From positions 2,550,001 to 2,582,000 of the forward strand of contig NC_010814.1 of NCBI RefSeq assembly GCF_000020385.1: DNA of 32,000 nucleotides. Reading direction: 5' to 3'. The notes under the pieces are model-generated. The model saw only the letters and a program-made list of their open reading frames with translations. It was not told the DNA's origin and did not search any database. Made by a program: the position numbers and the translations under genes. Below, in pieces: positions 6,912 through 32,000 of the stretch; position 1 is the first letter of the stretch; each line of letters starts with the position of its first letter. This DNA is from Trichlorobacter lovleyi SZ (GTDB lineage: Bacteria > Desulfobacterota > Desulfuromonadia > Geobacterales > Pseudopelobacteraceae).

Positions 6912-7592
6912 CTACCTTCTGACCACATTCGGCTGATTCTTGATTCCGGTATAAAAGACCACCAGCCGGACCGGCTCGGTCCCCCTGTTGCTGCCGTTGT
7001 GAAAGGCATCCACCACCTCGATAATGGCATCACCGGCTTTGTAGGCAATGCGCTGGCCACCTTCCAGCTCAACCTCGATCACGCCGGCCAGCACATAGGC
7101 ATAGACCGGTATGGCATGTTTGTGCCAGCCGGTTTCAGCACCGGGGGCCAGATCAACAGTCATGGCCGTCACCTCGGCCCGGTCAGTAACGGGATAGGCA
7201 ATCTTCTGGCCGTTGGCGGTCAGCGTGGTCTGCTTCAACAGCTTTGAGGTTACGCCGCCTTTATACCCTGCCGCCGGAGCCGGTCCCCCTTCAAACAGCA
7301 GCTTTTCACCGACAAAGTAGCGCCCGATCCCCTGATGTTCCCAGAAGGTGCGGGTGCCGTCACTGTAGCGGGCACCCGAGCCGGACACGGCAACGGGCAG
7401 CACCACCCTGCTGCCGTCAGCCAGCCCGACCGTGACATTTTTACGCACAAGATCAAAACAGGCCTGTAACTGCTCACCGCCGGCTGCAGCATAGGTTGCG
7501 GACACCTGCTGCGCCCCGCTGCACGGCAATGTGGCGGCAGACAGCGGCAACGCACACAACAACAGTATTCCTGCAATAGCCAGACGAACCAT
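6912..7592 (-). CDS. Exported fusion of an MliC-like (lysozyme-inhibitor fold) N-domain and a cupin C-domain
   Basis: The start is placed at ATG 7592 with a GGGAGAG RBS. The track start at 7655 would overlap the upstream gene. Signal peptide present. The N-domain reads CSG..ATY....LQACFD...VAVSGSGARYSDG..FWEHQG, which is MliC-like. The C-domain reads GWHKH...YVLAG.....G......GD......HNG, which is cupin-like. Confidence 0.65.
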   Translation of the reverse strand: MVRLAIAGILLLCALPLSAATLPCSGAQQVSATYAAAGGEQLQACFDLVRKNVTVGLADGSRVVLPVAVSGSGARYSDGTRTFWEHQGIGRYFVGEKLLFEGGPAPAAGYKGGVTSKLLKQTTLTANGQKIAYPVTDRAEVTAMTVDLAPGAETGWHKHAIPVYAYVLAGVIEVELEGGQRIAYKAGDAIIEVVDAFHNGSNRGTEPVRLVVFYTGIKNQPNVVRR

Positions 7593-7611
7593 GGTCTCTC
7601 CCTTCATCCTG

Positions 7612-8049
7612 TCAGACTCCGATATCCTCGTTCCACAGCTCCGGTTTTTCCGCAATAAACTGTTCCATCAACCGGATGCAGCGTTCATCCTGCAGCACCT
7701 CCAGCTGTACCCCCCGTGAGCGTAGCAGCTCCTCTTCTCCCAGGAAGGTACGGTTCTCGCCAATCACCACCCTGGGGATGCCGTACAGCAGGATGGCGCC
7801 ACTGCACATCGGGCAGGGAGAGAGGGTGGTATAGAGCACCGCTTCCCGGTAGACCGAGGCCGGTTGACGTCCGGCACGTTCCAGGGCATCCATCTCACCG
7901 TGCAGAATGGCGCTCCCCTGCTGTACCCGCCGGTTATGGCCACGGCCGATAATCCGGTTATTATGGACAATCACCGAGCCGATCGGGATGCCGCCTTCTG
8001 CCAGCCCGGCCTCTGCCTCTTCAATGGCTGCCTGCATGAAACTATCCAT
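7612..8049 (-). CDS. Cytosine deaminase of the yeast Fcy1 / CDA-fold type (cytidine/deoxycytidylate deaminase superfamily)
   Basis: Zinc motifs HGEMDALE and SPCPMCSGA are present. The whole length resembles S. cerevisiae Fcy1 as I remember it (GGVPIG...GRGHN.R...GSA.LHGE...LYTTLSPC.MC.GAI..YGIPR.V.GEN...DERC...M..FI...P..W.EDIG). Confidence 0.8.
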   Translation of the reverse strand: MDSFMQAAIEEAEAGLAEGGIPIGSVIVHNNRIIGRGHNRRVQQGSAILHGEMDALERAGRQPASVYREAVLYTTLSPCPMCSGAILLYGIPRVVIGENRTFLGEEELLRSRGVQLEVLQDERCIRLMEQFIAEKPELWNEDIGV

Positions 8050-11063: not shown

Positions 11064-12062
11064 CTATCCCCGGGCTGTGGCCGGCAGCCAGGCGGTGTTG
11101 ACCACGTTGATCGGTTTCCCCTGCAGATACCCGGCCAGATTTGCCGCTACAATGGCGGTCAGTCGCTGCCGGGCCGCCAGTGAGGCCCAGGCGATGTGGG
11201 GGGTAAAGATACAGTTGGGGGCTTGCAGCAACGGGTTTTCCGGCAGCATCGGCTCCACCGACACCACATCCAGACCCGCCCCGGCAATCACACCATCCCG
11301 CAGTGCTGCTGCCAGGTCAGACTCATTCACCAGCCCTCCCCTGGCCACATTGATCAGGAAGGCGCTCCGCTTCATCCGCTCCAGTAGGACTGCATTGACA
11401 AAGCCGCCATTCTCAGTGGTCTGGGGACAGTTAAGTGAGACCACATCCGCCTGGCCGAACAGCTCGTCAAGAGAGACAAACCGCACCAGAGGAAACTCCG
11501 TTGCTGCAGGAGGGCGGGGGGTATAGGCGACAACCTGCATCCCGAAGGCGCTCCCGATCCGGGCCACGGCCCGGCCAATGGCGCCGAATCCGACAATGCC
11601 GAGGGTCAGGCCGGCCAGTTCCACAATCGGCCTCTTCCAGAAGGAGTGGTCCGGGGAGCGAACCCACTCGCCCTGTTTGACCGCCTGATCATGCAGACCG
11701 GCATGGGTGGTCAGCTCCAGCAGCAGGGCAAAGGTGGTCTGGGCCACAGAATCGGTGGAATAGGCCGGTACGTTGGAAACCGTGATCCCCAGCCGTCCGG
11801 CTGCCTCAACATCCACATTATTGTAACCGGTGGCCAGCAGCGAAATAAACCGCAGACCGGGCAGTTGCTGCAGGATAGCGGCAGTCAGCTTGACCTTGCT
11901 GGTCAGGATCACCTCGGCTCCGGCAGCTCTTTCCAGCACCAGTTCTGCAGGGGTGCGGTCATAGATGCTGCAGCGGCCCAGGGCAGTAACCGCATCCCAG
12001 GGATTGTCACCCGGATTGATGGTATAGCCGTCCAGAATAACGATTGCAGGTTCTTCAGACAT
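11064..12062 (-). CDS. D-isomer-specific 2-hydroxyacid dehydrogenase (glycerate/hydroxypyruvate reductase-like)
   Basis: NAD-binding loop GIVGFGAIGRAV, plus NVARGGLV and TPHIAW catalytic contexts. The start is placed at ATG 12062 with a GGGAGGA RBS; the track start is 12083. Confidence 0.85.
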   Translation of the reverse strand: MSEEPAIVILDGYTINPGDNPWDAVTALGRCSIYDRTPAELVLERAAGAEVILTSKVKLTAAILQQLPGLRFISLLATGYNNVDVEAAGRLGITVSNVPAYSTDSVAQTTFALLLELTTHAGLHDQAVKQGEWVRSPDHSFWKRPIVELAGLTLGIVGFGAIGRAVARIGSAFGMQVVAYTPRPPAATEFPLVRFVSLDELFGQADVVSLNCPQTTENGGFVNAVLLERMKRSAFLINVARGGLVNESDLAAALRDGVIAGAGLDVVSVEPMLPENPLLQAPNCIFTPHIAWASLAARQRLTAIVAANLAGYLQGKPINVVNTAWLPATARG

Positions 12063-12175
12063 CGTGTTCCTCCCGGTTCTCAACAGTGCAAGGCTGTTCA
12101 GAGTAGCACAGCGCTCTGATCCGTCAATAGCCTGCTTTGTATACGTAGATTAACGACAGCAAGGCAACTCATTAA

Positions 12176-20742: not shown

Positions 20743-20795
20743 GCGTAAACATATTTTTGCTCTCTTTTATAGCAGCATCTCACCATGAGGAAGCG

Positions 20796-23003
20796 ATGCC
20801 CAGCACCCCCGAACAGGATCAACAGGCACTCAAGCATTACTGCACGCTGCGCTGCAGAATCATCTCCAGTGTGCTGCTGCTGCTGACGGTACTGCTGATC
20901 ATCTCAAGCTGGCACAGCTACAAAGGGTATCAGGTCGCCATCACCAATGCCGAGCATCAATCCCAGAGTTATGCCCGTGCCCTGAAAGAGCATGCTGAAC
21001 GGGCCTTTTCCGAGGCCGACCAATCCATCCACTACACGATTCACCAGATCTCCAACCGGGGCGGCCTGCAGTCCTTTTCACGCCGGGAGCTGTCTGATCT
21101 GTTAGCTCAAAATGCAGGCAACATCGCCCAGATCGGCACCATTGCAATCATTGATGCCAACGGCCGGATGCTGGCGGCATCCGGCAACACCCCCTCACTG
21201 CCGTCGGACATCACCTTCCGGGACTACTTCAAACACCACCGTTCAAACCCGTCGCCGGAGCTCTTCTTCGGTCCGCCCATCAAATCGATCATTGCCGGCA
21301 ACCGCTGGCACTTTACCGTTTCGCGCCGGATCAACACCCCTGCCGGCGCTTTTGCCGGCATTGTACGTGTCGCCTTTGATATTAGCTACTTTGAAGAGTT
21401 GTACAGCTCAATCGTTGCCGGCCGCAATGGCCGCTTTACGCTGGCCACCACAACCGGCGGCGACTATCTGGTGCTGGTCCCCTCGGAAGAAAAAGTCTAT
21501 GCCAGCGGCAAAAAGACCGCCCCTTTTTTCCGCACCTATGTGGCAGAACAGGCCGTCCGCACCTATCACAACAAAAAATCAAACATTGCCGGAGAATACC
21601 GGATCATCTCCTATCACCGGCTGGACCATTATCCGGTGGTGGCCATCAGCTCTTTTGGCCGGGATCAGGCGACTGCTGAATGGAAAGAAACCACTATCAA
21701 ACAGGGCATTATCACCGCCCTGCTCTGTCTGCTGGCCCTGTTGCTGACCCGTATCCTGCTGGTCCAGATCAAGCAGCTTGACCTGACCAACCGGCTGCTG
21801 CAACTGCAGCAGGAAGAGCTGCGGGCGGCCAAAGAGACGGCCGAAGCGGCCACCCAGGCAAAAAGCGAATTTCTGGCCAACATGAGCCATGAGATCCGTA
21901 CCCCGATGAATGCAATTATCGGTCTGGCACAATTAACCCTTGAAACCCGTCTGGATCCGCAACAGAAGAGTTATCTTGAGCGTTTGAGAAATGCATCTAC
22001 CGCCCTGCTGTCCATCATCAACGACATCCTTGATTTCTCAAAGATCGAGGCCCACAAGATCGAGATCGCCCATCTTGAGCTGAACCTGGCTGACATCCTG
22101 CAGGATGGTGTGACCCTCTTTCAGACTGCAGCAAAGGAAAAGGGACTCAAACTCAGTCTTGAGATTGCTGACGATATCCCGCAGCACCTGATCGGCGACC
22201 CGCTACGTCTGGGGCAGGTACTGAACAACCTGATCAGTAACGCCGTCAAGTTTACCGAGCGGGGAAGTGTCACAGTGCGGGCCGAACTGGCCGACAGAGA
22301 TGATCAACAGGTGATCATCCGGATTCTGGTCAGTGACACCGGAATCGGTATCGACAAAGAGCAGTCCGAACGTCTTTTCCAGCCCTTTACCCAGGCCGAC
22401 GGTTCGATTGTACGCCGCTTTGGCGGCACCGGGCTGGGGCTTTCCATTGCCCGTAATCTGGTTGAGCTCATGGGCGGCAGCATCACCCTCTCCAGTTGCC
22501 CCGATCAGGGCAGTACCTTTGCCTTTACCACCCGCCTTGACCTGGCGGCAACCGTACCATCGCAGCCCGATCAGCCTCAGCACACCCCCTATGAGATTGC
22601 CGGACCGATCCACGGTGCCCGGATACTGCTGGTGGAAGATAACGAGGTAAACCAGTTTGTTGCACGGGAGTTCCTGACCAAGGCCGGCCTGAAAGTCACC
22701 TGTGCAGCCCATGGCGGCGAAGGGGTTGAATGGATCAAAAACTCGGTATTCGATGCCGTCCTGATGGATATGCAGATGCCGGTCATGGACGGGGTGCAGG
22801 CCACGCAGCTGATCAGAAAGCTGCCCGCGGGCAGGCAACTGCCGATTATCGCCATGACGGCGGCAGCCATGGAGGCGGATCGCCAAACCTGCCTCGATGC
22901 CGGCATGGATGACTACCTTTCCAAACCGATTGTACCGCTTGAGATATTGGAAAAGCTGATCAAATGGATTACAGCCAAGAAACGGCAGCTCCATGAATCG
23001 TAA
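20796..23003 (+). CDS. Hybrid sensor histidine kinase/response regulator with a periplasmic Cache/PDC-like sensor domain
   Basis: Two TM segments flank a periplasmic domain of about 270 aa. H-box is [12 protein letters not shown] box is [11 protein letters not shown] boxes are DTGIGI and GGTGLGLSI. The C-terminal receiver shows [21 protein letters not shown] and YLSKP. The start is placed at ATG 20796; the track uses the TTG at 20757. Confidence 0.9.
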
Positions 23004-24327
23004 TCTGTTTACAAACCTGTCAACCATTGCCCTGTTGGCGGTTGCACCGTACAACAGTGCAGCCCAACCGGTTGCGCTTGATCCCCTGCTGCTGCAGCAG
23101 ATGCAGGAGACCATCCGGCAGCAACAGCAACAGTTGCAGCAGCAGGCTGAACAGATCAAGGCCCAGGCCGAAGTGTTGCAGCGGTTACAGCAGCAGATCA
23201 GCACCCTGCAGCAGGCGGCAGTACCCGCCCCAAAAACTGTGCAGACTACACCGCAAGTGACACCTCCTGCTCCCCAAGCACCACCCATAACCTCTGGTAA
23301 TAACAAGATCAGGCTGGCTCTTTCCGGGCAGATCAACCGGGCGGTGGTGGTGGCCAACGACGGCTACAACAGCACCCTCTACCATGTGGACAACACGGTC
23401 AGCAACAGCCGCTTCCGTCTGGTGGGGACTGCCGGAGTCAACAATGATCTGATCCTGGGCACCCGGCTGGAGGTAGCGGTATCGCCTGACCGTTCGTCTG
23501 CGGTATCCCAGAAAGACAAGACCAGTGGCGACCTGTTTGACCAGCGTTGGGTAGAGATCTCATTCACCAGCAAGACCTTTGGCAAGCTCTCGATCGGCAA
23601 GGGGGATACGGCCTCCAACACCACGGCCGAGGTGGATCTTTCGCGGACCGATGTGGTGCAGTACGCCAGTATCGCCGATATGGGGGGCGGCTTCCTGTTC
23701 CGCAGCAAAAACGGTACACAATCGTTTATTCCCAACGGTACAAGCAGCCTGAAGGTATCCGATGCCTTCAGCAGCTTTGACGGACTCTCCCGCCAGTCGC
23801 GCCTGCGGTACGACAGCCCCCACCTCTACGGCTTCAGCCTGGCCGGTTCTCTGGTCAGCAACCAGCGTTCCGACCTGGCCCTGTTCTGGGGCGGCCAGGG
23901 GTACGGCTTCAAAGGAGCCGGAGCCTTTGCGGTTTCCAACCCAAAACTTGCAAGCGGCGGGCTGCTGTATGATGGTTCTTTTTCCCTGCTGCACAGCACG
24001 AGTGGCCTCAACCTGACCCTGTCCGGCGCCATGCAGGAGTACAACCTTAGAAAGAACGCCACCAACCTGTACGCCAAACTGGGCTGGCTGGCCAGCCTGA
24101 CCAGCCTCGGCTACACCGCCTTCGGGGTTGACTACACCCGCTCCGAACATCAGGCACAAAACGGGGACAAAGGCTATTCAGTGGGAGCAGCAGTGGTGCA
24201 GACCTTTGAAAAGATTGCCACCGAGCTGTATCTTCAGTACCGGATCTTCTCCCTTGACCGGGCCGGAGGAACTACCCCGGTTGCCGATATCAACATCGGC
24301 ACCTTCGGGGCCAGGGTAAAATTCTGA
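22993..24327 (+). CDS. Outer-membrane porin with an N-terminal Gln-rich coiled coil (DcaP-like architecture)
   Basis: Signal peptide, then a heptad-like Q/L/A-rich segment (residues about 31-75), then alternating beta-strand sequence ending in the C-terminal F (GARVKF). The start overlaps the kinase stop by 11 nt. The DcaP comparison rests on architecture only. Confidence 0.6.
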
Positions 24328-24518
24328 TGAAAACTGTTTTCAGTTTGCTGTTTCTGATACTGCTGGCCGGTTGCAGCGGTATCATGCTGTACCAGCCTCC
24401 CAACCACCGTGAAGAAGGACCACAACAGGGACTGTTCACCGGAGAAAAGGGAGCATTTGAGATTGGCATACTGCCCGAAAGTAACCGCCCATTGAGGCAG
24501 AAGGAGGAAACGCGATGA
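24327..24518 (+). CDS. Small (63-aa) lipoprotein
   Basis: The ATG overlaps the porin stop (TGATG). Lipobox LLAGCSG. Its stop overlaps the next ATG (ATGA). This tight coupling on both sides argues that it is real. Confidence 0.5.
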   Translation: MKTVFSLLFLILLAGCSGIMLYQPPNHREEGPQQGLFTGEKGAFEIGILPESNRPLRQKEETR

Positions 24519-25240
24519 AGATGCTATCAAGAATGATCATGCTTCTGGCTGTTCTGCTGGTTCCCGGTATCTCTCAGGCTTTCAGTGTTGCCGGCAGCTA
24601 TTCAAGCAGCGAAGGTGCCGTTACCCTGCATCAATCAGGAGACCGCGTCACCGGACGTTACACGAACGACAATGGAGAGTTGACCGGCCTGATGTTCGGC
24701 AACATCTTTGAGGGGTTCTGGATCGAAGACGGATCGGACCGGCGCTGCTCGACCCCCAAGAATGGCCGCTACCATTGGGGACGTGTTACCCTTACCTTTG
24801 ACGGAAACGGTTTCAACGGTGTCTGGGGTCATTGCGACGACAAGCCGGCCCGCCCCTGGAACGGCTCCCGCAGTTCCGGCAGTCAGGGGGGCACACCACC
24901 TGCCGATCCCGGCCATGATCCCTTTAGCGTTACCAGCGACGGCCCCGGCATTGAGGGACTCTGGGGCTCTTCAGAGGGCGACATCAGGTTCCGCCAGCAG
25001 GGCAACCGGGTGGCGGGGCGTTACAGCAGCGATAACGGCGAGCTTGTCGGGACGCTGCAGAGCGGCACCCTGAGCGGTTACTGGATCGAAGACCACTCGG
25101 CCCAGCGCTGCATAACCCCCAGAAACGGACGGTACTTCTGGGGCAGGATTGAATTCAGCTTCTCGGGCAACAGATTCACCGGACGCTGGGGCTACTGCGA
25201 CGGCCCCCTGACCGGCAACTGGGGCGGTGAACGCAAGTGA
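24515..25240 (+). CDS. Secreted protein made of two homologous modules of about 94 aa; unknown family
   Basis: AAGGAGGA RBS and signal peptide ending ...GISQA/FS. The modules align along their length and are joined by a G/S/P-rich linker. Module 1: GDRVTGRYTNDNGELTG...GFWIEDGSDRRCSTPKNGRYHWGRVTLTFDGNGFNGVWGHCD. Module 2: GNRVAGRYSSDNGELVG...GYWIEDHSAQRCITPRNGRYFWGRIEFSFSGNRFTGRWGYCD. Confidence 0.65.
   Translation: MKMLSRMIMLLAVLLVPGISQAFSVAGSYSSSEGAVTLHQSGDRVTGRYTNDNGELTGLMFGNIFEGFWIEDGSDRRCSTPKNGRYHWGRVTLTFDGNGFNGVWGHCDDKPARPWNGSRSSGSQGGTPPADPGHDPFSVTSDGPGIEGLWGSSEGDIRFRQQGNRVAGRYSSDNGELVGTLQSGTLSGYWIEDHSAQRCITPRNGRYFWGRIEFSFSGNRFTGRWGYCDGPLTGNWGGERK
24590..25234 (+). repeat. Intragenic tandem duplication (module 1 about 24590-24871, module 2 about 24953-25234)
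   Basis: Protein-level repeat as described above. Each copy holds two conserved Cys. The copies have diverged at the DNA level. Confidence 0.7.
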
Positions 25241-25255
25241 CAACGGAGCTCAGCC

Positions 25256-26761
25256 ATGCCTGACCAGATCCCTGCAGCTGCAAATCTCGCCATCGCCCTG
25301 CTTGGTCCCAACCTTGCCAGGCAGCCGGACAAAACCGCCTATATCTGTAACGGCGAGGCTGTCAGCTATCAACAACTGGCTGACCGGGCCTGCCGGTTTG
25401 CCACCCTGCTGCAGCAGAACGGTATCGCAGCCGGAGATCGCGTACTGCTGATACTGCCTGACAGTCCGGTCTTTGTTGCCGCCTTTCTGGGTGCCGTGTT
25501 GCATGGTGCCGTTGCCGTACCGGTCAGCACTGCCCTGACGGCTGATGACTACCGCTACATCCTGCAGGACTCCGGCGCACGCTTCCTGCTATACTCCTCT
25601 GCAGTTCCTCCGGCTGCAGAACTTGCGAGTACAGCACTGACCAACCTTGTCTGTACCGAGACCTTGACCGGCTGGCTGGATCACTGCCCGGCTGCACGGC
25701 TGGCCGCAGCAGCGCCGGAGGAGGATGAGCTGGCCTTCATGCTCTACACCTCCGGTTCAACCGGCAAACCGAAGGGGGTGCCTCACCGGCACCGAGACCT
25801 GCTGGTTGCTGCCCGTCAGTACGCCGTTCAGGTCCTGGGCATGCAGCAGGATGATCTGATCTTTTCAGCCAGCAAGCTGTTCTTTGCCTACGGTCTGGGC
25901 AACAGCCTGGCCTTTCCGCTCTATACCGGGGCAACCGCGATCCTGTACCCCGGCAAGCCGTTGCCTGATGAGCTGCTGCATCTGATCGCACAGCACCGCC
26001 CCACCCTGTTTTTCTGCGTCCCCACGGTCTATGCCCAGATCATCCTCTCCACCGCCGCTCCAGAGCTGACCCTGCCGATGCGGCTCTGCATCTCTGCCGG
26101 TGAAGGATTGCCGGGTGCCGTGCTTGACGAGTGGCAGCGCCTGACCGGTCTTGCCATTCTGGATGGGATCGGCACCACAGAACTGACCCATATCTTTATC
26201 TCCAACTACCCGGACCGGATACGGAGCGGATCTGCGGGACAGGCCGTCCCCGGCTACCGGATCCGTCTGGTGGATGATGAGGGTAATCTGGTTCAGAGCG
26301 GTACGCCGGGTCACCTGCAGGTACAGGGAGACAGCACCGCCCCCTGTTACTGGAATCTGCCGGAGAAGAGTGCCGCCACCATGCTGCCGGACGGCTTCAT
26401 CAAAACCGGCGATGTCTTTCTGGAGCAAGACGGCTATTACTACCATCGGGGACGCAGTGACGACATGCTGAAGGTCGGAGGGCAGTGGATCTCGCCGGTA
26501 CAGGTGGAAGAGGTGCTGCGCTCCCACCCCGCAGTGGAGGATTGCGCCGTGGCGGCCTGCCAGATCTGGGGACTGATGCGACCGGCAGCCCACCTGATCC
26601 TCAAACCGGGCAGCACAACAGACCCGGCCTTTGAACGTGAGCTGCGCAGCTTCATGGCTGCCCGGCTGCCTGACTACATGGTACCGGTGCGTTACCACCT
26701 GGTGGATGACCTGCCCCGCACCGCCACCGGCAAGGTCCAGCGTTTCAAGCTCAGAAGCTGA
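25256..26761 (+). CDS. Adenylate-forming aryl-acid ligase of the benzoate-CoA / 4-hydroxybenzoate-CoA ligase family
   Basis: ANL-superfamily cores are present: MLYTSGSTGKPKGV, DGIGTTE, GD.F..D.DGYYYHRGRSDDMLKVGGQWISP, and the C-terminal PRTATGKVQRFKLR. GGAG RBS. Confidence 0.85.
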   Translation: MPDQIPAAANLAIALLGPNLARQPDKTAYICNGEAVSYQQLADRACRFATLLQQNGIAAGDRVLLILPDSPVFVAAFLGAVLHGAVAVPVSTALTADDYRYILQDSGARFLLYSSAVPPAAELASTALTNLVCTETLTGWLDHCPAARLAAAAPEEDELAFMLYTSGSTGKPKGVPHRHRDLLVAARQYAVQVLGMQQDDLIFSASKLFFAYGLGNSLAFPLYTGATAILYPGKPLPDELLHLIAQHRPTLFFCVPTVYAQIILSTAAPELTLPMRLCISAGEGLPGAVLDEWQRLTGLAILDGIGTTELTHIFISNYPDRIRSGSAGQAVPGYRIRLVDDEGNLVQSGTPGHLQVQGDSTAPCYWNLPEKSAATMLPDGFIKTGDVFLEQDGYYYHRGRSDDMLKVGGQWISPVQVEEVLRSHPAVEDCAVAACQIWGLMRPAAHLILKPGSTTDPAFERELRSFMAARLPDYMVPVRYHLVDDLPRTATGKVQRFKLRS

Positions 26762-27551
26762 TTTCGTTACCGAAGCGGATGCCGATCAGGGCCGCCCCCA
26801 GCGCAGCAACAAACTGCCGCATCCCGTCAGCGGGCAGCCGGACCTGGCTGCCCAGTTTCTGCTGCAGCAGTTCAGCTGCGGTCGCAAAATGCAGCACTCC
26901 TCCCGCCAGCACCAGCTCATCCTGCCGACCGGCCTGCCGCAGGATCTGCAAGGCACGCTCAACACAGGCGATCAGCGCCCCCTGCATGATATCCTGCGGG
27001 AGGACCGCCTGCATCAACTGGCTGATGATCTCCGATTCGGCAAAGACGGCGCAGATTGATGAAATCGGTGCAGGGTGCAGCGACTGCCGTGCCAGCGCAT
27101 CAACCTGATCAAGCCCCACCCCCATGATCCGGGCGGTCCGTTCCAGAAAGGCGCCGGTACCGGACGCACATTTTTCATTCAGCCGAAAAGCCAGAATCCT
27201 GCCCCGCTCATCAAACCTGCAGGCCTTGATGGTCTGCCCGCCAAGATCCAGCACCGACCCTGCAGCGGGAAACAGCAGCCGTGCCCCATGGGTTGCGGCG
27301 GTCAGCTCGGTCACCGCCCGATGCCGCATTGAGGCCAGATGCCGGGCAAAGCCGGTGCTGACAACGACGGACAGGTCGTCCTGTGCCAGACCTGCGGCCT
27401 CCAGTGCGCCTGCCAGGCAGCGTGCAGCCGCCCGGTCAGGCTGAAAGCCGGTCTTTTCCAGGCTGCTGGCCAGCACCCGGTAGTCGCCATCAATGACAAC
27501 CGCCTTGGTACAGGCAGCCCCCAGATCAATGCCGGCAGCAAAGCGTGTCAT
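26751..27551 (-). CDS. BcrAD/BadFG-type ATPase subunit 2 (BcrD/BadG-like electron-activating subunit)
   Basis: Actin-fold ATPase with the two cluster-ligand contexts NEKCASGTGAFLE and SSICAVFAESE. The phosphate-1 loop is divergent (GIDLGAACTK). The ATGA start/stop overlap with the upstream gene is at 27548-27551. Confidence 0.85.
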   Translation of the reverse strand: MTRFAAGIDLGAACTKAVVIDGDYRVLASSLEKTGFQPDRAAARCLAGALEAAGLAQDDLSVVVSTGFARHLASMRHRAVTELTAATHGARLLFPAAGSVLDLGGQTIKACRFDERGRILAFRLNEKCASGTGAFLERTARIMGVGLDQVDALARQSLHPAPISSICAVFAESEIISQLMQAVLPQDIMQGALIACVERALQILRQAGRQDELVLAGGVLHFATAAELLQQKLGSQVRLPADGMRQFVAALGAALIGIRFGNEISF

Positions 27552-28366
27552 CCCTGTAGTTCCTGCCGACCGGCCAATAGCCGGTCACGGGCAAACAGGG
27601 CCGCCCCCAGGGCACCGGCAAAGGGGGTCTGCTCCCCCACCTGCAACCGGCATCCGAGCAGCTGTTCAAGCTGGTCAACCATGCAGCTGTTGCGGGAGAC
27701 ACCACCGGTAAAGGTGATGGCCAGTTGCAGCCCCACCCGCTTCAGCAGGGCCAGGGAGCGGTTGGCAATCGCCTGGTGGACCCCCAGCAGGATGTCGTTA
27801 ACCGGTTTGCCCCGAGCCACCCAGGCCAGGATCTCGGTCTCTGCAAAGACGGTACAGGTGGTACTGATGGTGACCGGATTAGCGCCGGTGGCGGCAACAG
27901 CGGCCAGCTCATCCAGCGGCATCTCCAGCACTGCGGCAGCGGCTGACAGAAACCGGCCGGTCCCGGCAGCGCATTTGTCATTCATGCAGAAATCGATCAC
28001 CCCGCCATCGGCGGCCACCCTGATCGCCTTGGTGTCCTGCCCCCCCATGTCAAGCACGGTCCCGGTGGCGGGAAAGAGATGGACCGCTCCGCGGGCATGG
28101 CAACTGATCTCGGTTACCTGCAAATCTCCGAAGGCTATCCTGAAACGGCCATAGCCGGTGCCGGCAACGTACGAGACGGCGTCAGCCCCCAGTCCCGCAG
28201 CTGTCAGCAGCCGTGCATAGACGGTGCGGGCGGCGGCATCGATATCAAAGCCGGTGTCGATCAGCGCGGTCCCGGCAATCCGGGCCGAGACATCCAGCAG
28301 CACCGCCTTGGTCTGGGTTGAACCGACATCAATCCCGGCGGTAAAGGGGGGATTGAAGCCGGTCAT
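27548..28366 (-). CDS. BcrAD/BadFG-type ATPase subunit 1 (BcrA/BadF- or HgdC-like)
   Basis: Motifs GIDVGSTQTKAV, DMGGQDTK, NDKCAAGTGRFL, STCTVFAETE and TGGVS.N. The 4-nt overlap with the upstream gene is at 28363-28366. Confidence 0.85.
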   Translation of the reverse strand: MTGFNPPFTAGIDVGSTQTKAVLLDVSARIAGTALIDTGFDIDAAARTVYARLLTAAGLGADAVSYVAGTGYGRFRIAFGDLQVTEISCHARGAVHLFPATGTVLDMGGQDTKAIRVAADGGVIDFCMNDKCAAGTGRFLSAAAAVLEMPLDELAAVAATGANPVTISTTCTVFAETEILAWVARGKPVNDILLGVHQAIANRSLALLKRVGLQLAITFTGGVSRNSCMVDQLEQLLGCRLQVGEQTPFAGALGAALFARDRLLAGRQELQG

Positions 28367-29640
28367 GGCGCACCGGCCTGCCTGCGCAGACGCAGGGTTT
28401 CAAAAAATGCATCAATCCGGTTCTGCATCTGGGCCGGTGAGATCAGACGGCGGTCCATCATGTCTGATTCAAGCAGCAGGGTCGGTACGGAAGAGCGGGA
28501 CAGCAGGGCCAGCCGGGCATCGGCCAGCCCGGTTGAAACGGTGCGGCAGCTCTTGACCCCGTGGAAGACCACCCCATCGGCTTTGCAGGCGGCCTGAGCC
28601 TCAAAGAGGCGGTCTCCGGCCAGAAACATACTGTCCATCGCCTCACGGGTGGTCAACAGCAGCCCTTCGGCAAAACTCTCCACCGGCCGCCCCGTATCGA
28701 ACCGGTACTCAAGGTTTGCGCCGCCTGAGGCGAACTGCAGGTAGGTTGAGCGGACAAACAGACCGCCCTGGGTGCTGAACATCCTGATGAAGCTGCTGTA
28801 GAGCGGGTAGCAGGGCAGCCCGGCAAACAGCAGCCGGAAAGGGGCTTCAGCGGGCGGTTCCCGCAGGCAGCGCTGCCTGATCTGCAGCAACTCCTCCAGT
28901 GCATTCCTGAAATAGCGCACCCCGGCCTCGCTTCCCCGATAGGCATTGAAGACCCCCAGATAGGCGCCCCCCTGCCGCACCGCATCAAAACAGGCCGGTT
29001 CCTGCCGGTTCATTGCCAGCATCTGCCGGAAGGCATCTCCCATCCGGTTGGTGCAGTCCAGGGCATGGCTGAGACGGTCAGGATCTAGGCGTCTGCCGCT
29101 AATCCGTTCGCACAGGCTGATCAGGCTGCGGACCTGCTCCATCACATAGGCCAGGTCTGCGGCAAAGCCCGGATCACCGGGCCAGGATGGCCGGGCAGGA
29201 TTGCGGGAACCGGGAATATCAAACACAAACAGCGGCATGTCGTAGAGCCGCTGCCAGATCTCGGCCCATTTGATATAGGTATTGCAGGCCGTGCTGGCAA
29301 TGGCCAGACAGGGAGCGGGCAGACGTTTATGCGGCAACCGTCGCCCCTGCAGATGCAGGCCGACATCCGCCTTGAGATAGTTGCAGATGTCGGAGGGGTA
29401 GCCCTGCTCTTCGGCGTGCTGCAGCAGTCCCTGCGCGGTCCCGTTGACGGCGCTCTGCAGACAGTTGATCTCCGGCAGGAACAGCGGTATCTCAAAGGCT
29501 GCCAGCAGTTCGGCACAGCTTCCCATCACAAAGGCGTAGGCTGCCGTGCGCTGCTGTTGGGCAAGCAGGTCCAGCCGCTCTGACCAGTCCTCCAGCAGCG
29601 AAGTTGCCTCAATCTTTGCCCGCACGGCCGGAAAGGTCAT
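28363..29640 (-). CDS. 2-hydroxyacyl-CoA dehydratase / benzoyl-CoA reductase B/C-family subunit (425 aa)
   Basis: Length, operon position and conserved Cys contexts (IASTACNTY, GLPCYP, GVKSCRT) are typical of HgdA/B- and BcrB/C-type FeS subunits. The 4-nt overlap with the upstream gene is at 29637-29640. Confidence 0.75.
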   Translation of the reverse strand: MTFPAVRAKIEATSLLEDWSERLDLLAQQQRTAAYAFVMGSCAELLAAFEIPLFLPEINCLQSAVNGTAQGLLQHAEEQGYPSDICNYLKADVGLHLQGRRLPHKRLPAPCLAIASTACNTYIKWAEIWQRLYDMPLFVFDIPGSRNPARPSWPGDPGFAADLAYVMEQVRSLISLCERISGRRLDPDRLSHALDCTNRMGDAFRQMLAMNRQEPACFDAVRQGGAYLGVFNAYRGSEAGVRYFRNALEELLQIRQRCLREPPAEAPFRLLFAGLPCYPLYSSFIRMFSTQGGLFVRSTYLQFASGGANLEYRFDTGRPVESFAEGLLLTTREAMDSMFLAGDRLFEAQAACKADGVVFHGVKSCRTVSTGLADARLALLSRSSVPTLLLESDMMDRRLISPAQMQNRIDAFFETLRLRRQAGAP

Positions 29641-30830
29641 GGCAGCTCCCCGGCATAAAGAATGTTTTCGCTGAAGGTCTCCACCTGCAGCTCCACCAGC
29701 TCAAAGGAGTTCATCCCCTGTTCAAACTCGCAGATACAGCTGGGTATGCCGGCCCCGGTCAGGGCGGCAACCGCCGGAACCAGCTCATCCAGTCCCGGCT
29801 CACACATCTTGGGGGCCGTGATGATCACCGCCTGGGCTCCCTGTTGTTTGACCTGCTTCAGCAGCAGGTCTGCCGTCTGCCTGTGGGGGTCGTGCTGCAC
29901 CGGACTGCGGGATAAGCCGGTGCAGTAAGCATGGGCCAGGGCAGCCAGCGGATCCCCCTGAACATCCACATCGCCGGTCAGCCAGCGTAGCCCGATCAAC
30001 AGGTCATCGCTAACCACATGGCAGCAGCGGGCAATCGCCTCCAGCATCCCCAGCGGCGGCTGTTCGCAAAAGCAGCCGCACAGCACCACCCTGATCTTGT
30101 CCTGCTGTTGGCGCTGCCGCATGGCCAGCAGGGGCAGCACCCGCTCCAGCAGACGGTTATGCTCTCCGGGCGGCAGCAGGCTCCCCACAGCGGTCAGCAG
30201 GTAGTATTCATCCAGCGCCAGCTTTCGGGGTTCACGGGATTTCAGGGCCTGCAGCTCACGCAGCAGCCTGCGATGACGGTTATAGACAGCGATTGAGCGC
30301 CGCACCGCCTCCAGCTCCAGCGGTCTGCCGGTCACCTCGCTCACCACGGCGGCAAGGCCGGCGTACTCCTGCCGCAGATAGTTCTCAGCAGCGGGAGCGG
30401 TACTGTTTTGCGGCAGGTAGAGCGTCCGGCAGGGGGTACTGAAATTGCGGGACCAGATGGCAGGCAGGTTACGGGCCGCATCACAGATGGAAGGGACAAT
30501 CAACAGATCCAGGCTGAGATCGCCCCCCTCCACCAGATTAAAGACCTGCTTGACCACTGAACAGAGGTAGGAACCGAAATGGGCGCCACCCGCCCCGCCG
30601 TTGCCGGTGGTACAGCCCAGCTTCACCGCCAGCATCCCGGCAGCATCGGCAATCTCTTCAGGCATGTAGACCTGAAAATGCCCCAGCACCCTGCCCCCCT
30701 GCTCCTGCCAGAGCCGGAGCGTGGGGAAGGTTGCATCGCAGAGCAGCTCCCGGCAGGCATCAAGGATCTCTTCCAGGGATGCATCGCAGGGCAGGCTCTG
30801 ACCGAAAAAGAGAGGGGCACGCAGGTCCAT
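29637..30830 (-). CDS. 2-hydroxyacyl-CoA dehydratase / benzoyl-CoA reductase B/C-family subunit (397 aa)
   Basis: N-terminal W.E.GG.V.G.F..Y.PEEI..AAGM block, then PSICDAARN, GCFCE and APKMCEPG Cys contexts typical of this family. First gene of the four-gene unit. No Shine-Dalgarno sequence is visible before ATG 30830. Confidence 0.75.
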   Translation of the reverse strand: MDLRAPLFFGQSLPCDASLEEILDACRELLCDATFPTLRLWQEQGGRVLGHFQVYMPEEIADAAGMLAVKLGCTTGNGGAGGAHFGSYLCSVVKQVFNLVEGGDLSLDLLIVPSICDAARNLPAIWSRNFSTPCRTLYLPQNSTAPAAENYLRQEYAGLAAVVSEVTGRPLELEAVRRSIAVYNRHRRLLRELQALKSREPRKLALDEYYLLTAVGSLLPPGEHNRLLERVLPLLAMRQRQQQDKIRVVLCGCFCEQPPLGMLEAIARCCHVVSDDLLIGLRWLTGDVDVQGDPLAALAHAYCTGLSRSPVQHDPHRQTADLLLKQVKQQGAQAVIITAPKMCEPGLDELVPAVAALTGAGIPSCICEFEQGMNSFELVELQVETFSENILYAGELP

Positions 30831-30958: not shown

Positions 30959-31195
30959 ATGGCCGCGACCGTAGATGAGATGAAAGAGCTGATGCTGCAG
31001 ATCGGGATGGACAAAGAACTGGTAGCCGGGCTTGACCCTGTTGCGCCGTTGGCAGGACAGGGGGTTGATTCAGTGGACTGCCCCGCCTTTGCGGTGGCAC
31101 TGGAAAACAGGTACAAGGTCAAGATATCCGACTCCGATTCCATGCAACTGAGGGCCATCAACGACTTTGTCGCCTTTGTGAACCGGACGGCATGA
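30959..31195 (+). CDS. Stand-alone acyl/aryl carrier protein (phosphopantetheine-binding)
   Basis: 78 aa with AAGGAG RBS. The attachment-site context is GQGVDSVDCPAFAVALE, inside a four-helix-sized acidic protein. Confidence 0.75.
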   Translation: MAATVDEMKELMLQIGMDKELVAGLDPVAPLAGQGVDSVDCPAFAVALENRYKVKISDSDSMQLRAINDFVAFVNRTA

Positions 31196-32000
31196 CCCTG
31201 CGACAGGAAGCGATCAGGCGACTGGCAGCGGACAGCCGTCCGCTGCCGGAGACCGAGCCGTTCTCGACACGACTGTATCAGCCGGAAGACGGCTACGGGG
31301 TAACACGGCTGTTCTATGCCGTATATGGCGACGGCTATCCGGTCGACACCTTCTACCTGCCGGAACAGCTGACCGAAGAAAACCGGGCCGGCCGGATCAG
31401 GAGTGTCGTGGCCCGGACTGAGGACGGCCAGGTGGTCTCGCACATCGCCTTGTACCGCAGCTCTGCCCCCAACCCGGACCTGTATGAGTACGGCCTGGGG
31501 CTCACCCTGCCCGCCTACCGTGCCAGCCTTGCCTTTGCCCGCTGCAACAGCCTGTTGCTGTCACTGGTGGAAGATGGCGTTGTAGACTCTTTTTTTGGCG
31601 AGGCGGTCTGCAACCACATCATCACCCAGAAGCTTACCAGACAGAGCGGTGCCATAGAGACTGCGCTTGAAGCGGCACTGATGCCGGCCCGTGCCTACGA
31701 GGCAGAGCAGAGCGCAGACGGCAGGGTCGGCTGCATCATGTCATTCAAGGTCTGCCGTGACCGGATCCGGCCCCTCTGCATTCCCTCCTGTTACCACCAG
31801 GAACTGACATTCGCCATGGAGGGACTGAAGCTTGGGCGTGAACTGATTCCTGACAACGGCCAGCTCTCAGACGAGGGCTCACAGTTTGACACCGTCCGGT
31901 TTGACCATGCCGGTGTTGCCCGTTGTACCATCACCGCCCCGGGCAGAGACCTTGTCCCGCGGCTGTTGTCACTTGAAACAGAACTCCGGCAGGCCGGGTA
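31192..32000 (+). CDS. GNAT-like acyltransferase-fold protein, N-terminal 269 codons; continues beyond the window
   Basis: Absent from the track because there is no stop in the window. The ATG at 31192 overlaps the carrier-protein stop as ATGA. Hand translation gives MTLRQEAIRRLAADSRPLPETEPFSTRLYQPEDGYGVTRLFYAVYGDGYPVDTFYLPEQLTEENRAGRIRSVVARTEDGQVVSHIALYRS..., open to base 32000. The fold assignment is a weak impression, not a motif match. Confidence 0.45.
   Translation, partial: MTLRQEAIRRLAADSRPLPETEPFSTRLYQPEDGYGVTRLFYAVYGDGYPVDTFYLPEQLTEENRAGRIRSVVARTEDGQVVSHIALYRSSAPNPDLYEYGLGLTLPAYRASLAFARCNSLLLSLVEDGVVDSFFGEAVCNHIITQKLTRQSGAIETALEAALMPARAYEAEQSADGRVGCIMSFKVCRDRIRPLCIPSCYHQELTFAMEGLKLGRELIPDNGQLSDEGSQFDTVRFDHAGVARCTITAPGRDLVPRLLSLETELRQAG

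Follow-up and report, generated by a model that had tools for sequence, protein, structure and literature searches.

A four-gene operon related to those of benzoyl-CoA reductases (BCRs) lies in a 32,000-nucleotide stretch of the genome of Trichlorobacter (formerly Geobacter) lovleyi strain SZ (NC_010814.1, positions 2,550,001 to 2,582,000 of the forward strand; the whole stretch is called the window below). From sequence comparisons we consider it rather likely that the four genes encode an ATP-dependent class I aryl-thioester reductase with the architecture of 3-methylbenzoyl-CoA reductase (MBR), and that this enzyme serves a carrier-protein-linked acyl-transfer pathway. What is new appears best described as a subclade of MBR-type ATP-dependent ring reductases coupled to a module of aryl ligase, acyl carrier protein (ACP) and GNAT-fold protein. 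Class I enzymes comprise the BCR, MBR and BZD types, of which the MBR type forms a stable heterotetramer. Their known role is catabolic, and most of their hosts are facultative anaerobes; among strict anaerobes, those that degrade aromatics, for example Geobacter metallireducens, have the class II enzyme, which is independent of ATP (PMC11971306). The T. lovleyi enzyme stands out through its host, a cultured strict anaerobe without reported aromatic catabolism, through its wiring to ligase, ACP and GNAT genes, and through sequence innovations of its own.

Operon layout and subunit assignment

The operon is on the minus strand, in the order gamma-beta-alpha-delta (C-B-A-D). Gamma (BcrC/MbdN-like, 397 aa, ACD96117; 29637-30830) is an electron-transfer subunit of the HGD-D family and is followed by beta (BcrB/MbdO-like, 425 aa, ACD96116; 28363-29640), the putative active-site subunit. 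Next come the alpha ATPase (BcrA/MbdQ-like, 272 aa, ACD96115; 27548-28366) and the delta ATPase (BcrD/MbdP-like, 266 aa, ACD96114; 26751-27551). A preliminary description of the sequence had placed four minus-strand open reading frames (ORFs) here, joined by 4-nt overlaps. We reproduced both the coordinates and the junctions, and found that all three junctions are ATGA start/stop overlaps. Its division into two dehydratase/reductase-type subunits and two BcrAD/BadFG ATPases was borne out by Pfam profile search (HGD-D, 7.5e-61 for gamma and 1e-55 for beta; BcrAD_BadFG, 1.8e-53 for alpha and 1.2e-40 for delta). The public annotation of the reductase genes is '2-hydroxyacyl-CoA dehydratase' and 'acyl-CoA dehydratase activase'. 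Together with an adjoining ligase and an ACP, the subunits are identical to the strain SZ proteins ACD96113-ACD96118. An Rfam scan of the window gave no matches, and a promoter and terminator scan of the window did no better than on shuffled sequence.

The subunits were compared by sequence search against all PDB chains, and each found its best match in a different subunit of the 3-methylbenzoyl-CoA reductase MbdONQP. Gamma matched MbdN (E 1.4e-108, 46% identity), beta matched MbdO (E 7e-102, 40%), alpha matched MbdQ (E 1.8e-97, 59%) and delta matched MbdP (E 6e-56, 39%). Delta is closer to MbdP than to MbdQ and alpha is closer to MbdQ than to MbdP, and identity between the two ATPases is just 40%. 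Because they are this divergent and pair with different Mbd subunits, the ATPase duplication appears to be old and BCR-like, not a recent copy of an activator gene. The preliminary description had read the operon as a four-subunit enzyme of the class I BCR type, and the subunit-by-subunit match supports this reading. It had also regarded ATPases of about 270 aa as minimal. The size is correct, but it is the norm for the MBR type (MbdQ, 269 aa; MbdP, 273 aa) and not an oddity.

The NCBIfam models TIGR02263, TIGR02260, TIGR02259 and TIGR02261 were matched below their equivalog cutoffs (220 versus 421, 151 versus 486, 172 versus 578 and 119 versus 313 bits, respectively), and the same was true of the bzdN and bzdO models (69 versus 454 and 71 versus 449 bits). 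Ten other MBR-like representatives likewise fell below the Thauera-type cutoffs (190-297 bits), so the low scores exclude the Thauera/Rhodopseudomonas type and not class I as such. The shortfall shows only that there is no curated model for the MBR type.

Another explanation is that the operon encodes a ketyl radical enzyme of the 2-hydroxyacyl-CoA dehydratase type (Hgd/Had/Fld-like), acting on an amino-acid-derived 2-hydroxyacyl thioester with the help of a duplicated activator. The public names suggest this, and dehydratases and BCRs form one superfamily with a common fold and common Cys ligands. In addition, there is a HisC-type aminotransferase gene in the divergent operon and a D-isomer-specific 2-hydroxyacid dehydrogenase gene about 15 kb away (11064-12083, minus strand); 2-hydroxyacid dehydrogenases feed 2-hydroxyacyl-CoA dehydratases. 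However, beta scored 74 bits against HadB (7e-20) and 344 bits against MbdO, and gamma scored 113 bits against HadC (1e-31) and 367 bits against MbdN. Furthermore, the two ATPases have different BCR subunits as their orthologues, and the ligase belongs to the aryl-carboxylate type. Unrelated genes lie between the dehydrogenase gene and the operon, other loci of the subclade described below do not have a dehydrogenase of this kind near the reductase, and the aminotransferase is outside the minimal conserved module. No CoA-transferase gene was found near the reductase. The orthology pattern and the identities rule out a dehydratase whose second ATPase is a recent duplicate, an outcome that the preliminary description had allowed for. 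Given the far weaker HadBC matches and the two distinct BCR-paired ATPases, we regard a dehydratase function as very improbable.

These comparisons support the assignment of the enzyme to the class I BCR type with MBR architecture, rather than to the dehydratases with a duplicated activator. It shares with the MBR type the gene set, the subunit orthology, the three-Cys site and the bridging Cys of the ATPases. It departs from that type in falling outside the MbdO clade, in not having intact ATP motifs in both ATPases and in its lack of linkage to ring-degradation genes or ferredoxin. The traits of a dehydratase, namely a single homodimeric activator, closest relatives among Had/Hgd/Fld/Lcd and linkage to 2-hydroxyacid dehydrogenase and CoA-transferase genes, were all absent.

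A subclade with its own sequence traits

Homologues of beta fall into two tiers. The small tier, with 64-100% identity, was found among the GTDB species genomes scanned only in Geobacter, Geobacteraceae and Pelobacter metagenome-assembled genomes (MAGs), and a protein search added a Desulfobulbaceae MAG. The very large tier, with 45-52% identity, includes Gemmatimonadota, Acidobacteriota, Chloroflexota and others. In a neighbour-joining (NJ) tree of beta, which is distance-based only, the small tier was monophyletic in 200 of 200 bootstraps. It fell inside the most recent common ancestor of MbdO and the canonical-context tier in only 5 of the 200; by NJ it is a neighbouring lineage, with its exact sister group not fixed. 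The nesting within a characterised BCR clade that the preliminary description had envisaged is thus not what we found. Within this subclade the reductase is conserved from 100% down to about 57-66% identity, and its ORFs are intact in T. lovleyi.

The two ATPases differ in their ATP sites. In alpha the motifs are canonical, GIDVGSTQTK at residues 11-20 and DMGGQDTK, and are conserved as in about 75 relatives. In delta the phosphate-binding loop (P-loop) reads GIDLGAACTK (residues 7-16; window 27504-27533) and is without the conserved Ser-Thr pair. This degeneracy, already pointed out in the preliminary description, is real and holds clade-wide: every member of the subclade has G(A/S/T)(A/G)(C/Y)TK, whereas about 75 other MBR-like delta subunits have a near-invariant GSTYTK and MbdP has GSTYIK. 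In some members, the DxGGQ motif of delta is altered as well. The degenerate site suggests asymmetric or single-site ATP use, in which alpha alone would be fully competent. In contrast to the ATP motifs of delta, the Cys residues expected to bridge a [4Fe-4S] cluster are invariant across loci in both ATPases: C132 (NDKC132AAGTG) and C171 (STTC171TVFAETE) in alpha, and C128 (NEKC128ASGTG) and C167 (SSIC167AVFAESE) in delta. Three of these four contexts had been reported correctly, and in the second alpha motif, STTCTVFAETE, one T had been dropped.

Gamma has the universal Cys C90, C116 and C343, with C255 added in MBR-like proteins. Four further Cys, C73, C253, C365 and C367, are invariant in nine of nine subclade loci, and are absent from all 70 other MBR-like sequences examined as well as from MbdN, HadC and BzdN. 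Judging from the description of BzdN, they would be placed at strand ends facing the inter-domain cluster cavity, and they suggest an enlarged or additional FeS site in gamma. A six-Cys [8Fe-9S] double-cubane site like that of BzdN was considered and ruled out, as the extra Cys of BzdN do not align with the gamma Cys.

In beta, C86, C119 and C365 align with C95, C128 and C380 of BzdO, and Y88 aligns with BzdO Y97. E57 is part of a PE(I)N motif common to MbdO and HadB, and it is matched to BzdO E65 solely by position, as that residue lies outside the aligned stretch. The roles of the cluster Cys, the catalytic Glu and the thioester-bonding Tyr are taken from work on BzdO (PMC11971306). Each of these five beta residues is at least 97% conserved in the subclade and its neighbours. 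Against this background there are 13 clade-specific substitutions in beta, including L55 and C60, which flank E57, and T117 next to C119; these are consistent with an altered substrate pocket. When the clade substitutions were mapped on the CoA-binding helices of BzdO, D219 and R286 proved to be shared with BzdO, and there is therefore no argument in beta for a switch from CoA to ACP.

The degenerate P-loop could also indicate decay, with delta having lost nucleotide binding and the complex being an inactive relic or a scaffold only. The missing Ser-Thr pair and the deviating DxGGQ of some subclade members fit this idea. However, the four ORFs are intact, translationally coupled and conserved across genomes, all cluster Cys are kept and new invariant Cys have been gained, which argues for purifying selection and neofunctionalisation and not for decay. 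A relic is therefore hardly to be expected.

Partner genes and the proposed pathway

Presence or absence of neighbouring genes was scored by tblastn over 97 loci. Where beta is at least 66% identical (about 10 independent genomes), the genes for the ACP, the ligase and the GNAT-like protein are present, and a trio of two enoyl-CoA hydratases (ECH) and a zinc-dependent alcohol dehydrogenase (Zn-ADH) occurs in none. Where beta is at most 52% identical (about 75 loci), the pattern is reversed, with the trio in most loci and without the ACP/ligase/GNAT-like set. One example from the large tier (L011) has a TetR gene, two ECH genes, the four reductase genes and a Zn-ADH gene. The oddity of the T. 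lovleyi operon is thus a conserved, different set of partners and not isolation. The preliminary description had called the operon an enzyme without the rest of a pathway, overlooking the adjoining gene of the aryl-CoA ligase family and the divergent ACP gene, both inside the window.

The ligase gene (501 aa, ACD96113; 25256-26761, plus strand) encodes an aryl-acid adenylating enzyme of the benzoate-CoA ligase family, with 470.8 bits against TIGR02262 (cutoff 375) and best PDB matches to the benzoate-CoA ligase 2V7B (6.7e-114) and the anthranilate-CoA ligase 4WV3. Its public name is 'benzoate-CoA ligase family protein'. It converges on the operon, and the 3' ends of the ligase and delta genes overlap by 11 nt (26751-26761). 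A convergent overlap of about 11-12 nt is also kept in the Geobacteraceae locus L009, and transcription of the two units may interfere mutually or terminate within one another. Ligase orthologues (45-100% identity) adjoin the reductase in nearly all subclade loci.

On the other side, across a 128-bp gap from gamma, a divergent operon opens with a dedicated ACP (78 aa, ACD96118, publicly 'phosphopantetheine-binding protein'; 30959-31195, plus strand), recognised by a PP-binding match of 4.4e-05, ACP matches in NCBIfam and a GVDSVD motif. Orthologues with 43-100% identity stand beside the reductase in every subclade locus but L007, where two other ACPs are encoded. The next gene, in translational coupling with that of the ACP, encodes a 349-aa GNAT-fold protein (31192-32000, plus strand), and only its 5' part is in the window. 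It had no Pfam or NCBIfam match, and its AlphaFold model (pLDDT 90.8) retrieved GNAT acetyltransferases in Foldseek with probability 1.0. The family has 596 members, one of which (P0144, Desulfobulbaceae) is fused to an ACP, and a 367-aa paralogue (59% identity) is encoded further along the divergent operon. Across genomes the partners are orthologous, at 43-75% identity for the ACP, 45-64% for the ligase and 47-66% for the GNAT-like protein.

The partners also occur without the reductase. L017 has a ligase-ACP-GNAT-like cluster together with a 440-aa protein, an aminotransferase, a Mo-hydroxylase and an MFS transporter, preceded by SpoIIE, STAS, RsbW and cupin genes. L098 is a related variant with a phosphopantetheinyl transferase, a 3-hydroxyacyl-CoA dehydrogenase (3HCDH) and a ketoacyl-ACP synthase III (KAS III). 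The reductase therefore has the look of an optional extra in a carrier-protein-dependent cluster. The aminotransferase is not part of the minimal conserved module.

Based on homology to MbdONQP and BzdNO, we propose the following mechanism. The alpha-delta dimer would hold a [4Fe-4S] cluster bridged by C132 and C171 of alpha and C128 and C167 of delta and would take an electron from a low-potential donor, and ATP hydrolysis would drive this electron through the FeS centre of gamma to the three-Cys aqua-[4Fe-4S] cluster of beta (C86, C119, C365). Beta would then reduce the aromatic ring of an aryl thioester to a cyclic dienoyl thioester. As the gene context suggests, the ligase would activate the aromatic acid as a CoA or ACP thioester, and the alicyclic acyl group would be passed on by GNAT-type and possibly KAS III enzymes of the larger cluster instead of being degraded. 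Because the partners of the subclade are ligase, ACP and GNAT-fold proteins and never the trio, we read the pathway as non-degradative, and the data suggest recruitment of the enzyme to a probably biosynthetic pathway. A more specific and clearly more speculative version is that a dearomatising reductase of the Birch type, driven by ATP, was recruited out of catabolism to carrier-protein acyl assembly, possibly acting on aryl-S-ACP and not on aryl-CoA. GNAT or KAS III enzymes might then make the alicyclic dienoyl unit part of a metabolite that is exported or serves in signalling. The reductase itself would have been remodelled, keeping a single competent ATP site and having an extra or enlarged FeS site in gamma.

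Several points weigh against the acyl-transfer reading. The dearomatising activity is deduced from 39-59% identity to one characterised enzyme, and the cluster has no gene for ferredoxin or another electron donor. A sensor kinase gene and a porin-like gene precede that of the ligase in T. lovleyi and the relatives nearest to it, an arrangement that would also suit a strain taking up an aromatic acid from outside in order to degrade it. Alternatively, the GNAT proteins might regulate the ligase by lysine acylation and not carry intermediates; BadA of R. palustris is regulated in this way.

The enzyme might then be an ordinary catabolic class I (substituted) benzoyl-CoA reductase, with the ring-degradation genes elsewhere in the genome, unlinked to the locus, and with the ACP and GNAT genes as unrelated neighbours or regulators. 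Homology to MBR-type BCRs, the adjoining gene of the benzoate-CoA ligase family, the dCache sensor kinase and porin-like gene ahead of it, and a 3HCDH gene (T. lovleyi) and an ECH gene (L009) within 10 kb all agree with such a role. However, the ECH/ECH/Zn-ADH trio occurs in 0 of about 10 subclade loci as opposed to most of about 75 sister-clade loci, and ACP, ligase and GNAT-like genes have stayed with the reductase across genomes in which they are only 43-66% identical. Since 3HCDH and KAS III are present in reductase-less clusters, they are not ring-opening enzymes; 3HCDH, KAS III and ECH were ruled out as reductase-specific downstream enzymes by their recurrence without a reductase (L098). 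Pfam scans of all window genes upheld the earlier statement that the window is without a ferredoxin, hydratase, dehydrogenase or ring hydrolase. No canonical set of dienoyl-CoA hydratase, hydroxyacyl-CoA dehydrogenase and ring hydrolase was found in the whole window, in about 15 kb past its right end (L001, L099) or in the subclade loci, so that canonical pathway genes just outside the window, as once envisaged, were ruled out on that side.

The physiology of the host also argues against catabolism. The 2012 genome paper and a 2026 review of T. lovleyi name acetate, pyruvate and H2 as electron donors and mention no aromatic metabolism or substrate. Each ring would cost a strict anaerobe two ATP, a heavy expense, and those Geobacter relatives that degrade aromatics rely on the class II enzyme (PMC11971306). 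Literature searches on MBR, on BCR or bamA in G. lovleyi and on BCR with ACP or a biosynthetic cluster gave nothing relevant beyond PMC11971306. With the gene search covering the window and about 15 kb beyond it, we judge a catabolic role with unlinked downstream genes to be unlikely, though a good deal less so than a dehydratase.

If the enzyme is active as proposed, it would for the first time show enzymatic Birch-type reduction at work outside degradation. It would then also offer a natural test of the need for both ATP sites and might have an FeS arrangement new to the BCR/HAD radical enzymes. The analysis also reveals a fairly widespread, uncharacterised cluster of ligase, ACP, GNAT-like protein of about 350 aa, RsbW-GNAT fusion, STAS protein, aminotransferase and MFS transporter. 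As the genes are those of the type strain SZ (ACD96113-ACD96118), experiments are feasible.

Neighbouring genes and comparison with known systems

Past the window, the divergent operon continues from the 349-aa protein with a 426-aa protein, the HisC-type aminotransferase and the 367-aa paralogue. These are followed by 3HCDH, KAS III, STAS, MocA/XdhC, an MFS transporter and two Mo-hydroxylase small subunits, and then by a second ACP and a 1,110-aa E1-lipoyl-KAS III fusion. The 426-aa protein (L001:7305-8585, minus strand, just past the right end of the window) has no Pfam match. Its predicted model (pLDDT 82) and Foldseek indicate an RsbW/SpoIIAB-type anti-sigma kinase domain fused to a GNAT domain, and its family is narrow, with 36 matches. 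An RsbV-like STAS gene lies nearby (L001:2774-3112), and L017 has a full SpoIIE-STAS-RsbW set. On the model, the RsbW-GNAT and STAS proteins look like a partner-switching module that controls, or is built into, the acyltransferase.

The second ACP (80 aa) adjoins the 1,110-aa fusion of 2-oxoacid dehydrogenase E1 (alpha and beta), lipoyl and KAS III domains (L099:19794-21104, minus strand, about 14 kb past the window). This architecture suggests that 2-oxoacid-derived starter units are fed directly to the condensing enzyme. Genes for the Mo-hydroxylase FAD (290 aa) and 2Fe-2S (159 aa) subunits (L099:16044-17964, minus strand) are split by ORFs of 85 and 91 aa. These subunits were considered as a possible 4-hydroxybenzoyl-CoA reductase; the FAD subunit is short (276-290 aa), and the genes also occur, with all three subunits, in the reductase-less L017. 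The large molybdopterin subunit was not seen in about 10 kb of the T. lovleyi-type contig L099 past the 367-aa gene, where the XdhC and MocA maturation genes are present; it may have been lost or relocated, or may lie further upstream. In a Nitrospiraceae MAG (L015/L016:2984-9059), an ACP and GNAT-like pair stands beside a 1,504-aa single-chain carboxyltransferase-biotin carboxylase resembling acetyl-CoA carboxylase, with only a remnant of an AMP-binding gene, a further setting in which the GNAT-like family is found.

Upstream of the ligase is a plus-strand block of tightly spaced or overlapping genes (20757-25240), whose membership in the system is uncertain. It encodes a dCache hybrid histidine kinase (20757-23003; Pfam dCache_1, HisKA, HATPase_c and Response_reg), a 444-aa porin-like protein, a 63-aa lipoprotein and a 241-aa secreted protein, the last three without a Pfam or NCBIfam family match. 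The block is conserved only in the closest relatives, L019 and L020 (58-71% identity). The 444-aa protein (22993-24327), whose gene overlaps the end of the kinase gene, begins with a Gln-rich coiled coil and, as outer-membrane porins do, ends in Phe. Further along this strand, after short gaps, comes the ligase gene. The kinase and porin-like genes may form an uptake and sensing unit for the ligase substrate. The 241-aa protein (24515-25240), encoded between the lipoprotein and ligase genes, has two internal repeats of about 100 aa with the motif G-RY-x-DNGEL-G ... WIED-S-x-RC-TP-NGRY-WGR ... F-G-WG-CD, and is found at 68-71% identity in the closest relatives only. Elsewhere in the window, an MliC-Cupin_2 fusion (6912-7655, minus strand) is 63% identical to a protein encoded directly beside the ligase in L009. 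Cupin genes are likewise found ahead of the ligase in L017 and ahead of the reductase in L007, and the fusion may be a displaced member of the ligase-ACP-GNAT system.

Modules that combine aryl-acid:carrier-protein ligases with GNAT-type N-acyl transferases are represented by the benzoate:ACP ligase EncN, XanA2/XanC and the N-acyl amino acid synthases. They have the same set of partners as the T. lovleyi enzyme, an aryl-acid ligase, a small ACP and a GNAT-fold enzyme, and the ACP-GNAT fusion occurs in the T. lovleyi-type GNAT family itself. We know of no BCR-type ring reductase in any of these systems.

HadBC/HadI and HgdAB/HgdC belong to the same superfamily as the T. lovleyi enzyme, with an ASKHA ATPase, a bridging [4Fe-4S] cluster and HGD-D catalytic subunits. 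They use one homodimeric activator that acts catalytically, whereas the T. lovleyi operon has two distinct ATPase genes, and their similarity to it is much lower than that of MBR. BcrCBAD of Thauera aromatica and BadDEFG of Rhodopseudomonas palustris have the same gene order and the same logic of a heterodimeric ATPase and a catalytic dimer, but the T. lovleyi subunits score far below their equivalog cutoffs. The 272-aa alpha matches only positions 230-432 of the 432-position BcrA model and is without the N-terminal part of BcrA. BzdNOPQ of Aromatoleum (BzdNO structure 8S02, PMC11971306) shares the three-Cys aqua-[4Fe-4S] arrangement and the Tyr that hydrogen-bonds the thioester. It resembles the T. 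lovleyi subunits weakly in sequence (E 1e-18 to 6e-21), beta has Tyr122 where BzdO has His131, and the Cys that ligate the [8Fe-9S] double cubane of BzdN do not align with the gamma Cys.

The closest system is MbdONQP (PDB 9G87, 9GAI, 9GAL and 9GBA), which has the same four families and sizes, with ATPases of about 270 aa, and whose cluster Cys of beta, alpha and delta are conserved in the T. lovleyi enzyme. The latter differs in forming a separate lineage, in its degenerate delta P-loop where MbdP keeps GSTYIK, in its four extra gamma Cys and in its 13 beta substitutions. Its neighbours also differ: in place of dch/had/oah genes, it is linked to those for the ligase, the ACP and the GNAT-fold protein.

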